Below are positions 2,273-27,333 of a stretch of 36,330 nt of DNA, in pieces. The notes beneath the pieces were generated by a model. It worked only from the letters and a program-made list of their open reading frames with translations. It made no database searches and was not told where the DNA came from. The first letter of the stretch is position 1. Every line of letters begins with the position of its first letter. The stretch is from positions 1 to 36,330 of the IMG/VR virus record IMGVR_UViG_3300022742_000101; one strand, given 5' to 3'. Origin of the DNA: a virus. Lineage: Duplodnaviria; Caudoviricetes. The position numbers and the translations under genes are program-made.

Positions 2273-3339
2273 GACATCAGTCCTAGCGTGATAGCACCTG
2301 GCCTGATCCAGCCTACTGCCCCGGCAACAGTAGTTGGTGCCACGTTCGCCACAGGTGTCAGTACCTGGTAGTCAGCAACGCCGGCCAAGTTGCCCAAGAT
2401 AGTTCCGATACGATTTCGCTTTAGAGGCACGTCGGGAGCCAGCGCGTTGAGTTCTTCCTCGTATGCAGCCTGAGCAGCGCTCTGAACGTCGTCGAGCTTG
2501 TAGCCATCTACTAGCTCGACATTCGCCGTCGCCGCTACAACTTGAACAAGGGGGGCGTATACGAACACTTCAGCCGTTACCGGACGCAAATAATCAATAT
2601 GAGCAGCACAGGCGGCGATCACTTGGGCTGTGGGCAATCCCTCTTGGCTTGTGATGATGACATCGACCGTGTTGGCCCCTCGCCGCCTTGGAAAGATAGT
2701 CGCTGATGCGACCCCATCAACCTCTAACGCCCAGCGCTTGTAGTCGTGTGCAGCACCGCCGGCCGGTGGCGCGCGGAGCACGTCGAGCAACCGGGCGAGG
2801 ACCGAGGCTGGAGGCTCAATGTCGCTTCCGCCGACAAGGCCCTCGACGAGGGTGCACGCCGAATCGATGCCTAGTGGCGGGCTGGTCAGGATGACTGGCC
2901 CCGTCAGACCGTTCGCGCTCACGCCGACCGACTGCGCAATCACCGGCGCCAATGCATTGCCTGAACTTCCGACGCTAACTGCCGCCGTGGTTGTCAGCAG
3001 AGCACCGCTGGCGACATGTCTTATCACGCTGCCGGCATCAAGAATTGCGCCTGGCGTGCCACTGATTTGCACTATTCCTGTTGCCGCCACGGCTGCGCGC
3101 GGGCGGATACCACGATTCGCGGCATGGTGCAGCACCTCGGCATCGTCGGCGGTGTCGGGAAAAATCTGACGAAATAGCCAGGACTGGTGCTGGTAGAGCC
3201 CTTCGATTGAGGCCGCCACAGCGGCGCTGCGAATGAAGTTATCCGAATCGCTTCCGATGTCTGCATCGGGTAGCAAGCTGCGGATGTTCCGCAGAATTGC
3301 ATCGCGTATGTTTTCGTAGCTTGGGGGGGCAAAAGGCAT
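2269..3339 (-). CDS. Baseplate J / Mu gp47 wedge protein
   Basis: QIFPDTAD, GGSDIE and PPAGGAAHDYKRWALEVDGV motifs. Confidence 0.92.
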   Translation of the reverse strand: MPFAPPSYENIRDAILRNIRSLLPDADIGSDSDNFIRSAAVAASIEGLYQHQSWLFRQIFPDTADDAEVLHHAANRGIRPRAAVAATGIVQISGTPGAILDAGSVIRHVASGALLTTTAAVSVGSSGNALAPVIAQSVGVSANGLTGPVILTSPPLGIDSACTLVEGLVGGSDIEPPASVLARLLDVLRAPPAGGAAHDYKRWALEVDGVASATIFPRRRGANTVDVIITSQEGLPTAQVIAACAAHIDYLRPVTAEVFVYAPLVQVVAATANVELVDGYKLDDVQSAAQAAYEEELNALAPDVPLKRNRIGTILGNLAGVADYQVLTPVANVAPTTVAGAVGWIRPGAITLGLMS

Positions 3340-15993: not shown

Positions 15994-16542
15994 TTACCCC
16001 TTGAGATAGGCTCCGACGATCTCCAGCAGCTCCGTTTCGTCCTCGGCGGAGAGCCCGAGATAAGGTCGAGCCGGCATCTCGACTGTTCGTGCGCCGTGGG
16101 ACACCCACTGCGAGAAGTTCGACTGGCGCTTTTTCACGAAGCGATTGCCCACCACGCCACCCTTTTCCTTGAAGTACACCTGCTGTGATCGAGCAGCGTG
16201 CTCGACCTTGCCCCCGAACTGATGGATCGCGCCGTAGGGTCGGTCAGTACCGAACTGCAATTCATCACCAGCAACCTGGTGCCGGAGCGTATCGAGCAGC
16301 GCCCCGGACTCGCGGAGTGTCTTGTTACCCTTCTTCCGCGCGAGCGTGCGCGGCGACAAGGGCGCCCAAGGCGAGCCATCCGGTCCGACCTGGTTCCTCG
16401 CCCGACTGTCAGTGGACTGGTGCAGGTACTCACCGATGTCCAGTAGCGGGGTGCGCATATCCCCCAGCCGTTCGGCCAATTTCTCCAGCGCCTGGCCGAC
16501 GCTCGACACGTCAAGCGTCACATCAAGGATTGCCCCGGCCAT
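15994..16542 (-). CDS. Virion morphogenesis protein, Mu G-like
   Basis: PDGSPWAPLS, YGAIHQFGG and MPARPYLGLS motifs. Confidence 0.93.
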   Translation of the reverse strand: MAGAILDVTLDVSSVGQALEKLAERLGDMRTPLLDIGEYLHQSTDSRARNQVGPDGSPWAPLSPRTLARKKGNKTLRESGALLDTLRHQVAGDELQFGTDRPYGAIHQFGGKVEHAARSQQVYFKEKGGVVGNRFVKKRQSNFSQWVSHGARTVEMPARPYLGLSAEDETELLEIVGAYLKG

Positions 16543-16559
16543 GGAATACCTCCTACTAT
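16530..16559 (+). promoter_or_regulatory. Putative sigma70 promoter for a small RNA
   Basis: TTGCCC (16530-35), 18 nt, TACTAT (16554-59). Confidence 0.55.
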
Positions 16560-16565
16560 CTATAG

Positions 16566-16647
16566 ACGTTCATTGGCTGAGCAGTCCCCGCCGGGACCTC
16601 CAAGCCTACAGCCAGAGCTAAAACCCGTGCGGCGGCGCGGGTTTTTT
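16566..16647 (+). ncRNA. Putative structured small RNA convergent with MuF-nuclease
   Basis: Stem TGGCTG/CAGCCA encloses hairpin GTCCC-CGCC-GGGAC. A terminator hairpin with loop GGCG, complementary to CGCC, follows, then a T run. Confidence 0.6.
16620..16647 (+). terminator. Intrinsic terminator (potentially bidirectional)
   Basis: AAAACCCGTGC-GGCG-GCGCGGGTTTTTT. Confidence 0.75.
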
Positions 16648-17926
16648 ATTGCCCGCTTTCCGGGCGGCGGTACAGCCGCACGCCGAGTCGCAGTTGCTCC
16701 AGGTACTCGGGGTTGTCAGCGTCCGGGGCAAAGGTGGTGATGCCATCCCAGCCATCTGGCCCGACTTCGAACACTGCCAGCGCCGCCACCGGCTCACCCT
16801 CGACCTGGAGCCGGCTTATATAGCGGCGACGCACCACGGCCTTGTTCTGCGCATACTGCCATTCCAGCCTGACCCAGACTTCGTCCGGTTCCTTCAGCGC
16901 GTCGGCGAGCAACAGCAGCTCGCGCGCATGGCCTCGCTTGCTGACTTTCAGTGCGCCGGTTTTGGCATTTGTGAACAGGTCACGACCGATCACCACGCCG
17001 TCGCCGACTTTGTCGCGGAACACGACAGGCTTGGCCTCGGTCGCCCCGAACTCGCCCAGGAACCGCCCGACATACTCTTCATCAGACAGTCCGGCCGGCA
17101 GCAGGCGGTCAGCCGCCGCAGGCCGTGGCGCCGGAAGCGGACCAGGCGGACGCCGGTTCGGTAGGCCTGCGCCTTGTACCGCGGTACGGCTGCCCGGCTC
17201 CGGAAGTGGGTCGTGGGCCCGCAGCGGCGGCACCGCCGACGTCAGGCGCGACTGACCAGGTGCGTACTCAAAGCCGGGATCGATGCCAACTGGAACGCGC
17301 ACGGTGCGCGGCCCGTTCGGGCTGTTCACACCAATGGTACGGTCTTCGTACTCGATCACGGGCGCCGGGCCAACCTTGAGGCCTTGGCGCTCAACGTCCC
17401 GCTCGCTGAGCATGAACTTTTTGCACTTGCAGCCCCATCCGTTTTGAGGTGTATGCGTGGACCACCAAGGGTCATCATGCGGCAACACGGTGCCGTCCCA
17501 TGCTTTGTGCTGCGGACGTGGATGTGCGCTATCGCCGTGACGGTACATTGCGTACGGTCTGGCTTTCCGCAGTTCGGGGTCAGCCATCTGCGCTTCACGG
17601 CCTGCGTTGTAAGACTGGCGCAGGTTTGTTTCGAAGATCGTCTGCGTCCGCCATGCCCGCCCGCCGTTGTACTGCCAGCCGTGCTGGCTGACGATCTTGT
17701 CGAAGTCTGTCCTGAATTGCTCAAGCGTCAGGCCCTTTGTGATCGCCTTTTCGACTGCGCCGCGCATGTCTGCCAACAGCTCGCGCTTAACGGTGCCGGC
17801 TACGACAAACGCCCAGTCATGCTCCGCCGCGTATATGTCGGTCCAGGCCCTGGTCGGCACGTTGGTCTTGCCTTTGAAGTAGTCGATCTGCTCCTTGAAC
17901 GGTAGGGAGCCATGCGATACAGACAT
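16646..17926 (-). CDS. MuF/gp30 minor head protein with C-terminal PBECR2-like nuclease domain
   Basis: MuF core (TIFETNLRQSYNAGR, RPQH.AWDG, PQNGWGCKC), Pro-rich linker, then a ~150-aa domain with KVSKRGH..LADALKEPDEVW..RRRYI..GITTF. Confidence 0.85.
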   Translation of the reverse strand: MSVSHGSLPFKEQIDYFKGKTNVPTRAWTDIYAAEHDWAFVVAGTVKRELLADMRGAVEKAITKGLTLEQFRTDFDKIVSQHGWQYNGGRAWRTQTIFETNLRQSYNAGREAQMADPELRKARPYAMYRHGDSAHPRPQHKAWDGTVLPHDDPWWSTHTPQNGWGCKCKKFMLSERDVERQGLKVGPAPVIEYEDRTIGVNSPNGPRTVRVPVGIDPGFEYAPGQSRLTSAVPPLRAHDPLPEPGSRTAVQGAGLPNRRPPGPLPAPRPAAADRLLPAGLSDEEYVGRFLGEFGATEAKPVVFRDKVGDGVVIGRDLFTNAKTGALKVSKRGHARELLLLADALKEPDEVWVRLEWQYAQNKAVVRRRYISRLQVEGEPVAALAVFEVGPDGWDGITTFAPDADNPEYLEQLRLGVRLYRRPESGQ

Positions 17927-18132
17927 TACACCCCCCGCCTGATGAACTCGGCGACTTCGATTGCTTCGGTGCGACTCAGCTCGATTTCGAGTGAGCTCTC
18001 TTCGGCCTGGATATAGAAAACAACAGCGCCGGGAGCCTGCTTACAGGTGATGGAAAAGGCCATTCCATCGGTGCTATAGAACGAGATCACCTTTTTCTTT
18101 GTCGTTGAGTTCTCGGTATCACCTCGCATCAC
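17926..18132 (-). CDS. Small hypothetical protein between portal and MuF
   Basis: 68 aa, overlapping both neighbours (ATGA and TAATG junctions). Confidence 0.65.
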   Translation of the reverse strand: MMRGDTENSTTKKKVISFYSTDGMAFSITCKQAPGAVVFYIQAEESSLEIELSRTEAIEVAEFIRRGV

Positions 18133-21270: not shown

Positions 21271-21726
21271 ATGCTTGACTGGATTGCTGGTGCGGTGCAA
21301 AGCGCAAAGACGATGAAGGACATTAGCCAGTCGCTGCTTACCCTTCGCGATGAAAATCTTATCCGGGAGCGCGTCTATGATCTGAACAACAACCTGATGG
21401 AGCTTCAGCAAAAGCTGCTTGAAGCCCAACTCAGTCAGATAGAGCTGGTCAGTCGCATACAAGCGCTTGAAAGTGAAAGGGACCGAGCCAATCAGGCCAC
21501 TGATGTTAAAGCGCAATACACCATTTATACCTTCCCCACATCGGCTCATGCATACGTTTTGAACACTGAGGACCCTGAGAAAGCCACGCGCTATTTTTGC
21601 AGCAACTGCCTGGAAACAGGGTCTGTGGCTGTCACTCTCCAAGGATCCAAGGTGCTGGGCTGCCCCAAGTGCAAGACCGAGATTCGCTCCGTACCTGCTC
21701 AGAGTCGCTATACGGTTCGCCGATAG
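21271..21726 (+). CDS. Opposite-strand moron: coiled coil plus C4 zinc ribbon, unknown function
   Basis: GGAGG SD; lower GC than the flanks; CSNC...CPKC. Confidence 0.85.
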   Translation: MLDWIAGAVQSAKTMKDISQSLLTLRDENLIRERVYDLNNNLMELQQKLLEAQLSQIELVSRIQALESERDRANQATDVKAQYTIYTFPTSAHAYVLNTEDPEKATRYFCSNCLETGSVAVTLQGSKVLGCPKCKTEIRSVPAQSRYTVRR

Positions 21727-27021: not shown

Positions 27022-27033
27022 GTCTCAATCCTC

Positions 27034-27099
27034 GGCTGCTCGTCAGTACCCGGCCACCATGGCGGGCAGACCACCCCGGACAAGCCGGGGCGGTTTCGC
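27034..27099 (-). ncRNA. Type II hammerhead ribozyme
   Basis: GC-GAAA-CCGCCCCGG-cuugu-CCGGGGUG-GUC^-UGCCCG-loop-CGGGUA-CUGACGA-GC-aGCC. All core nucleotides and three stems are present. Confidence 0.9.
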
Positions 27100-27333
27100 T
27101 CAGTGGATGGTCGGTTTTGTCTGAAGCAGCTCGCGGGTGGCTTTACAGACTTCGCAGTCACAGCCCGGCATGGCCGCGCTGATCGGAAGGGCGATACGGC
27201 CCAGCAGTTTGACGCCGTTCATCATGGCGTCCACAACGCGCCCGGCGGGGGTACTGTGCAGGTCGCTCTGGTTGTCGATGCTGATTGAAACTGCGCCTTC
27301 GCTGTCGTCTACGGTGATTTGGATCTTAGCCAT
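27100..27333 (-). CDS. Hypothetical protein (77 aa, CxCxxC)
   Basis: Start MAKIQITV after GAG; operon orientation. Confidence 0.75.
   Translation of the reverse strand: MAKIQITVDDSEGAVSISIDNQSDLHSTPAGRVVDAMMNGVKLLGRIALPISAAMPGCDCEVCKATRELLQTKPTIH

Follow-up and report, generated by a model that had tools for sequence, protein, structure and literature searches.

The 36,330-nt stretch analysed here (IMG/VR virus record IMGVR_UViG_3300022742_000101; hereafter the window) is a whole Mu-like provirus record, with genes for a transposase, a transposition protein, a repressor, lysis, a terminase, a portal, MuF, gpG, a protease and a major head protein. We focus on the 3′ end of MuF, where a predicted ribonuclease (RNase) domain, PBECR2, is followed on the opposite strand by a small structured RNA motif. 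The nearest genome match of the window's PBECR2 domain is a Pseudomonas (97 % identity), suggesting a Pseudomonas host.

A structured RNA motif between MuF and gpG

The MuF protein matches PHROG 220 (minor head protein and DNA pilot, E value 6e-96) and joins an N-terminal PF04233 domain to a C-terminal PF18810 domain, the latter scoring 94.5 bits, above the curated cut-off of 27.1; this domain pair is the architecture of the MuF polymorphic toxins. A preliminary description of the DNA, made from the sequence alone, had recognised the extra C-terminal domain as PBECR2-like and had found no immunity gene after it. Both observations held: the profile searches agree on the domain, and no open reading frame (ORF) fits the 103-nt gap between MuF and gpG, meaning that a small immunity ORF directly downstream of MuF is not present. 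The locus comprises the following features:

16646–17926 (−): MuF (gpF) minor head protein of 426 amino acids (aa), Phage_Mu_F (aa 54–169) fused to the C-terminal PBECR2; stop codon at 16646–48
16667–17065 (−): PBECR2 predicted RNase domain, aa 288–420 (PF18810, E value 6.7e-27; 1.4e-29 in another search)
15994–16542 (−): gpG virion morphogenesis gene (PF05069, E value 8.7e-35), start at 16542; the start region doubles as the RNA promoter
16530–16559 (+): predicted σ70-type promoter of the RNA, TTGCCC (16530–35), 18-nt spacer and TACTAT (16554–59), called on family conservation
16566–16648 (+): structured RNA motif of ~83 nt, with a 5′ end deduced from the −10 box; 85 bits with covariance model R1
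16574–81/16606–14 (+): outer stem P1, with bulged A16608; 6/8 pairs vary on both sides
16598–605 (+): 3′ side of the asymmetric 2×8 internal loop between P1 and P2; the flanking G-C pairs are invariant
16584–87/16594–97 (+): inner stem P2 (inner hairpin 16584–97); 3/4 pairs vary on both sides
16588–16593 (+): loop L2, CCGCCG, first half of the loop–loop kiss; 6/6 kiss pairs covary
16620–16647 (+): hairpin P3 (16620–45) and then a U-tract (T run to 16647), a probable terminator; 9/9 pairs covary
16630–35 (+): loop L3, CGGCGG, second half of the kiss, complementary to L2

The plus strand of 16560–16650 folds at −37.3 kcal/mol (z −3.3), a value equalled or bettered by 0/200 shuffles, and the opposite strand at a z of only −1.3. 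The 3′ end of the RNA abuts the MuF stop codon on the opposite strand, giving a convergent layout. The promoter boxes, stem, inner hairpin and 3′ hairpin of the preliminary description are all present; the two loops are complementary as it proposed, only not over 4 nt, each being 6 nt long and forming, by covariation, a 6-bp kiss.

The motif is conserved in Mu-like prophages of Gamma-, Beta- and Alphaproteobacteria, and in homologous loci from IMG/VR and GTDB it lies antisense to the 3′ end of MuF in, among others, Pseudomonas, Gilliamella, Pasteurellaceae and Comamonadaceae. Thirty-eight distinct sequences of the main clade, selected for alignment, share P1, the 2×8 internal loop, P2, the L2–L3 kiss and P3, with 98.2 % of 1021 cells paired. 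Across these homologues 24 of the 27 pairs are altered on both sides, including 6/6 kiss pairs, which lends support to the kissing pseudoknot first proposed from the window. The observed covariation values were reached by 0/500 shuffles (a control that relatedness inflates, the structure also being drawn from the same 38 sequences), and slid registers pair at 33–49 %. L2 occurs in 14 different sequences among the 38 and fully pairs its own L3 in 34/38 of them, as against 408/1406 combinations with the L3 of other sequences. Since the alignment holds 64 G-U cells and 8 A-C cells, the RNA strand is fixed as the one antisense to MuF (plus in the window). The layout recurs, with a loop pair of its own, in a second clade, part of which has a non-kissing variant. 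Two cultured phages, RcapMu (RNA at 21525–21616, minus strand of NC_016165) and RcWaterboi, combine intact protein motifs with complementary loops GGTGA/TCACC after a TATATT box.

Within the internal loop, which often reads CTCCAA, an unpaired C-C is conserved. A T-loop reading of this loop was rejected, as its first base can be T, A or G and it lacks a conserved closing pair. Mimicry of a transfer RNA (tRNA) anticodon loop is a lead only, the U-turn base not being conserved. A ribozyme reading was also rejected, there being no Rfam match and the co-loss with protein residues described below being left without a reason. Rfam 15 holds no family for the gap (terminator-like weak matches only) or for 15 homologous loci (0 matches), and BLASTn of the RNA against 50,697 phage records returned short chance matches only.

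The RNA promoter overlaps the first codons of gpG and its ribosome-binding site on the opposite strand. A −35/−10 score of at least 8 around the gpG start was obtained for 67/103 representative loci with an RNA-sized gap vs 0/39 without one (classes defined below), the spacer among the 67 being 17 nt in 62 and 18 nt in 5. The window itself scores 7.5 by the same scheme, and a strict promoter/terminator scan of it called neither the RNA promoter nor a P3 terminator; the σ70-like promoter suggested earlier is supported by conservation in the family, not by the window sequence alone. Among 59 kiss-positive main-clade representatives, a U-tract follows P3 in 44 on the RNA strand vs 4 on the other strand and is missing in 15, so the 3′ hairpin, previously described as a terminator, is better regarded as a kissing partner first and a terminator second. 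From these sequence features we infer that an RNA of ~83 nt is transcribed independently from its own promoter.

Association of the RNA with the predicted active site

The PBECR domains fall in the colicin-like BECR group, whose active site is built from the pre-helix and the last strand and whose characterised members mostly cut tRNA (10.64898/2026.08.28.747851, in the part available). The PBECR active site was defined as a His plus a Thr/Ser by Iyer et al. 2017 (PMC5512222), who also report, in the sections at hand, an inactive PBECR copy in Mu gp30 for which RNA binding was proposed. The window PBECR2 has the defining His and Thr (H333 and T397), and an AlphaFold2 model of the domain (predicted local distance difference test, 89) places K330–H333 and T397–F399 as follows:

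16928–16948 (−): basic motif K327, K330 and H333 (most homologues have R here), on the short helix that precedes the core helix; predicted active site
16730–16738 (−): T397-x-F399, on the last core strand (domain-model strand 120–127); predicted second half of the active site

BECR RNases lead a wide structure search, in which 7vd7 (Z 4.2), colicin D (Z 3.9, root-mean-square deviation 2.9, 77 aligned), CdiA and colicin E5 are among the leading matches; these matches are weak, all staying below Z 5. A sequence search of the PDB gave no match. The K/K/H-or-R/T residues are predicted from the model to be the catalytic site of a PBECR2 RNase.

To relate these residues to the RNA, we kept 307 of 333 domain loci (20 had no locatable gpG and six were weak or short) and collapsed them at 90 % identity within gap class, giving 156 representatives. 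Only one of the patterns used to retrieve homologous loci held motif residues. The classes, in which a gap of 61–150 nt serves as a proxy for presence of the RNA, are RNA-gap (61–150 nt, n=103), RNA-less (≤60 nt, n=39) and longer (n=14). K327, K330, H/R333 and T397 are all kept in 103/103 RNA-gap vs 0/39 RNA-less representatives, and in 12/14 of the longer-gap class, which has inserted genes or tandem RNAs. Retention in the RNA-less class is 15 % for K327, 5 % for K330, 23 % for H/R333 and 46 % for T397; the scaffold residues P347, E349, W351, R367, Y369, W393, R413 and G415 are 95–100 % retained in both classes. The decay in RNA-less homologues is specific to the predicted active site and does not extend to the scaffold.

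In a tree of the whole protein from which the motif columns were excluded (135 rows, with seven short rows left out), the RNA gap and the residue motif each change 20 times, and 18/18 independent pairs on supported branches agree (p 7.6e-6). The reverse search is concordant in that 94/99 matches to the RNA pattern have a convergent PBECR2, nearly all with the basic motif; three of the other five are at contig ends and two at CRISPR arrays, beside decayed PBECR2 tails. The same slot is occupied differently in other MuF types: a metallopeptidase-type tail is followed by a 65-aa ORF (L101), and short MuFs abut gpG (L085, L089).

Copies of the RNA away from the nuclease

Searches with model R1 covered five overlapping samples of 151 whole genomes each, two of which gave no new locus. 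They returned 14 distinct matches, of which 12 were examined, the weak L459 and L461 being left out of the orphan count; seven of the 12 adjoin PBECR2 and gpG and five do not. All five orphans have their own −10 box and a 6-bp kiss, the latter read from the sequences. PF18810 was not found in 3/4 orphan-bearing genomes, which may be incomplete. The orphans and the copies associated with CRISPR arrays are listed below, with coordinates of the respective loci:

L468, ~1500–1600: orphan beside purC
L470, ~1500–1600: orphan between an aldehyde dehydrogenase gene and an NYN gene
L471 and L473, ~1500–1600: two orphan copies with their own terminator, near an MmeI-type gene
L458, 1491–1635: 145-nt oversized spacer in a 22-repeat CRISPR array; the spacer contains the −10 box, the RNA and the final codons of PBECR2
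L424, 512–990, and L427, 1400–1552: like L458, an RNA copy with a remnant of PBECR2, within a CRISPR array or at its trailer end

The three copies at CRISPR arrays are independent, and the arrays have different repeats. At positions away from the nuclease a cis-acting or antisense element would be useless, and an antidote would be useful. Together, the covariation, the co-occurrence with the active site in independent lineages and the orphan copies bear out the functional link to the nuclease domain that was initially proposed: the RNA motif is real, conserved and functionally tied to PBECR2.

Some loci depart from the arrangement in the window. Three carry the RNA twice in tandem, with a separate loop pair for each copy (L305, 2238–2445; L342, 2245–2435; L072, 2800–3000). 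Extra genes on either strand lie between the MuF stop and the RNA in L038, L063, L109, L118, L140 and L301; where genes are inserted in this way, the RNA remains at the gpG promoter, 300–400 nt from MuF. In L019 (673–767), the MuF stop is lost and the reading frame crosses the RNA, which is still intact.

Possible roles of the RNA

We favour, with a probability of roughly 0.65, the view that the kissing-loop RNA is a protein-binding antitoxin of a virion-borne, colicin-like RNase, the MuF-fused PBECR2, and that it likely fills the slot usual for the protein immunity gene of MuF toxins. This view is preferred because the RNA is gained and lost with the predicted active site and occurs alone in bacterial chromosomes. 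Host σ70 RNA polymerase would make the RNA from prophage or freshly injected DNA, independently of the late operon. The RNA would fold into a compact P1-P2/P3 unit whose internal loop faces, and blocks, the basic cleft of PBECR2, a colicin-like RNase for which tRNA would be the likeliest target by family precedent. PBECR2 would be made late, enter the head together with MuF and be harmful to cells without the RNA. Once the nuclease decays, the RNA would be dispensable and be deleted; while the motif is intact, it would not be lost.

Several points weigh against an antitoxin role. The co-loss of the RNA and the motif residues fits a cofactor equally well, and most homologues have Arg at the position of the window His, so the motif could be RNA-binding and not catalytic. 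Structural Z-scores of the PBECR2 model reach only 3–4.2, none being at least 5, a Foldseek comparison of the model with the PDB and BFVD returned nothing at E values ≤0.001, and the literature searches found neither RNase activity nor toxicity described for any PBECR2. The RcapMu homologue, with intact motif and kiss, is not among the 422 putative small RNAs of R. capsulatus SB1003 in the available part of PMC5546546. The kiss is not universal: one of at least 5 bp was found automatically in 80/103 RNA-gap representatives and in 21/38 in one clade, which includes non-kissing forms, and L075, L077, L084, L191 and their kin keep the outer stem and the 3′ hairpin with the kissing loop replaced by a tetraloop hairpin within a conserved internal motif. 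The domain-only tree offers few supported pairs (5/5 agree, p 0.06), and the class counts depend on gap length standing in for the RNA. Finally, there are two near-exceptions, in each of which at least one motif residue is changed: L176 (A-K-R-T-F, RNA absent) and the L025 group (T-K-R-S-F, a single hairpin left).

The strongest alternative, which we nevertheless consider unlikely, is that the RNA is a cofactor, bound by PBECR2 through the basic motif to give a non-toxic or RNA-activated ribonucleoprotein; it could be a head or portal RNA, comparable to the phi29 packaging RNA, or a sponge or decoy for host defence proteins delivered with the virion. Joint loss of the RNA and K/K/R/T fits binding as well as inhibition, the Arg in place of His in most members is compatible with it, the loop–loop pairs could be intermolecular, and RNA binding has a precedent in the proposal for the inactive Mu gp30 copy (PMC5512222, in the sections at hand). 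However, intact orphans in chromosomes without a detected PF18810 are hard to explain for a cofactor but would be expected of an antidote, the existence of phages without the RNA, JBD25 among them, indicates that it is not essential for packaging, and the residues lost lie at colicin-like catalytic positions.

Appreciably less probable is a type I-like antisense mechanism, in which the convergent RNA would pair with the late messenger RNA (mRNA) just past the MuF stop and, through degradation, lower MuF-PBECR2; RatA- and SR4-type antitoxins are examples of such 3′-overlap antisense RNAs. The convergent layout, own promoter and U-tract agree with this, complementarity to the intergenic mRNA is full by construction, and co-loss with an active toxin would be expected here too. 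The covarying intramolecular kiss and the conserved unpaired bases, however, are not needed for pairing with mRNA, complementary mRNA is lacking for the orphan copies, gene insertion leaves the RNA beside gpG and 300–400 nt from MuF, and the RNA begins beyond the ribosome-binding site of gpG and extends no further than the MuF stop. Nor does the locus otherwise resemble a type I toxin–antitoxin (TA) system, its 426-aa virion protein not being a small hydrophobic toxin, its RNA having a covarying tertiary structure and its orphans lacking a target mRNA.

More doubtful still is a role of the RNA as natural substrate or trigger of PBECR2, which would process it to yield an active small RNA directed at something else: the 15/59 members without a U-tract would need 3′ processing, and the conserved unpaired C-C could be read in this light, but orphans without the enzyme would stay unprocessed, and a conserved single-stranded seed that might recognise an outside target was not seen. 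Largely refuted and very improbable is the reading as an element that acts in cis in the late mRNA or DNA (as terminator, attenuator or processing site) and is unrelated to the nuclease, since its position between two late genes and the ability of the window P3 to form a weak hairpin with a T run on either strand are outweighed by the G-U/A-C asymmetry favouring the antisense strand, a sense-strand U-tract in only 4/59, and the link to PBECR2 residues and the orphans, which it does not explain.

An antitoxin RNA of this kind would be reminiscent of type III TA systems (ToxIN/AbiQ, CptIN and TenpIN) and of AbiF/RCd22, which likewise pair a predicted RNase with a small pseudoknotted RNA in place of a protein antitoxin; both occur on mobile elements, and the RNA is occasionally present in two copies. 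Its pseudoknot is a loop–loop knot between hairpins, the topology of which differs from the H-type knot of ToxI. Type III antitoxins are tandem repeats upstream of the toxin, co-transcribed with it and set off by a terminator (10.1101/2025.04.15.648962, in the part available), whereas here the RNA is single (two copies only in L305, L342 and L072), downstream, convergent and served by its own promoter, and the toxin would be a BECR domain fused to a virion protein. No homology of MuF to ToxN, CptN, TenpN, AbiQ or AbiF was detected, PF18810 and PF04233 being its only matches at E values ≤1. The pair would work like a type III system but is excluded from that type by layout and toxin family, in line with the difference in layout pointed out in the preliminary description.

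The MuF polymorphic toxins of Jamet et al. 2017 (PMC5576092) share the MuF N-terminus, the C-terminal predicted toxin and the location in the head-packaging module of a temperate phage, and differ in having a small ORF where an RNA motif occupies the immunity slot here. The PBECR domains (PMC5512222) and the colicin-like BECR RNases (colicin D/E5, CdiA tRNases) share the domain family and the His plus Thr layout, and some MuF copies are inactive; an RNA partner is not mentioned in the available parts of those sources, and the characterised colicin-like toxins use protein immunity. Closest among described RNAs may be DNAVirus_1035 (Fremin et al. 2023, PMC10690425), a 76-nt unnamed candidate structure ≤25 bp from gpG-type (Phage_tail_S/COG5005) genes. 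Its listed hosts are mostly Rhodobacteraceae, Deltaproteobacteria and Methylophilaceae, and the searchable files link it to neither PBECR2 nor a function; compared by description only, it may be a sister of this RNA or belong to the same class. Literature searches returned no description of a PBECR- or MuF-linked RNA, and word searches of the main texts of PMC5737381 and 10.64898/2026.09.22.753630 found neither MuF nor kissing, and in the latter also not BECR.

If the RNA is an antitoxin, it would add a BECR-fold family to the toxins with protein-binding RNA antitoxins and would be, as far as the literature searches show, the first RNA to replace the immunity protein of a polymorphic virion-borne toxin. 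To our knowledge, protein-binding RNA antitoxins come from few toxin families only. It would also tell what the C-terminal extensions of MuF proteins in proteobacterial phages, so far unexplained, are for. At 150 aa plus 85 nt, the unit lends itself to direct testing: the residues are marked by dead variants found in nature, compensatory loop pairs occur among natural sequences, and intact versions are carried by the cultured Rhodobacter phages RcapMu and RcWaterboi. The orphan copies in host chromosomes and CRISPR arrays hint at a new counter-defence route.

A broader scenario is possible but tentative. The virion would inject the MuF-PBECR2 RNase and the sole antidote would be RNA transcribed from the incoming phage DNA by host polymerase, such that destruction of that DNA by restriction or CRISPR would poison the cell. 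Lysogens would be immune to kin, and bacteria would steal the antidote gene into chromosomes and CRISPR arrays. The same logic would seem to hold for other PBECR/MuF_C families, the RNAs of which are unrelated and include a cloverleaf resembling a tRNA, and noncoding RNAs would then form a general class of immunity genes against the polymorphic toxins of phages.

Other MuF tails were also seen beside structured stretches. In L083 and L091 (~2775–2885, minus strand), MuF ends in a different PBECR/MuF_C-like tail and is followed by an antisense cloverleaf that resembles a tRNA and has a TTCGAAT loop, a TATACT box and a terminator. Neither Rfam nor ARAGORN called it, and ARAGORN returned no tRNA for 12 loci with PBECR-type domains other than PBECR2, the cloverleaf-like L083 included. 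L447–L456, L060, L080 and L086 have distant PBECR2 or other MuF tails, mostly followed downstream by an unrelated structured stretch and a −10-like box in convergent orientation. PBECR domains may in general have an RNA partner, of which many folds would exist.

Elsewhere in the window, a 68-aa ORF without family assignment (17926–18132, minus strand) lies between the portal gene and MuF, and the early region contains a type II hammerhead ribozyme (27030–27101, minus strand; Rfam, 62.8 bits, E value 6.8e-11).

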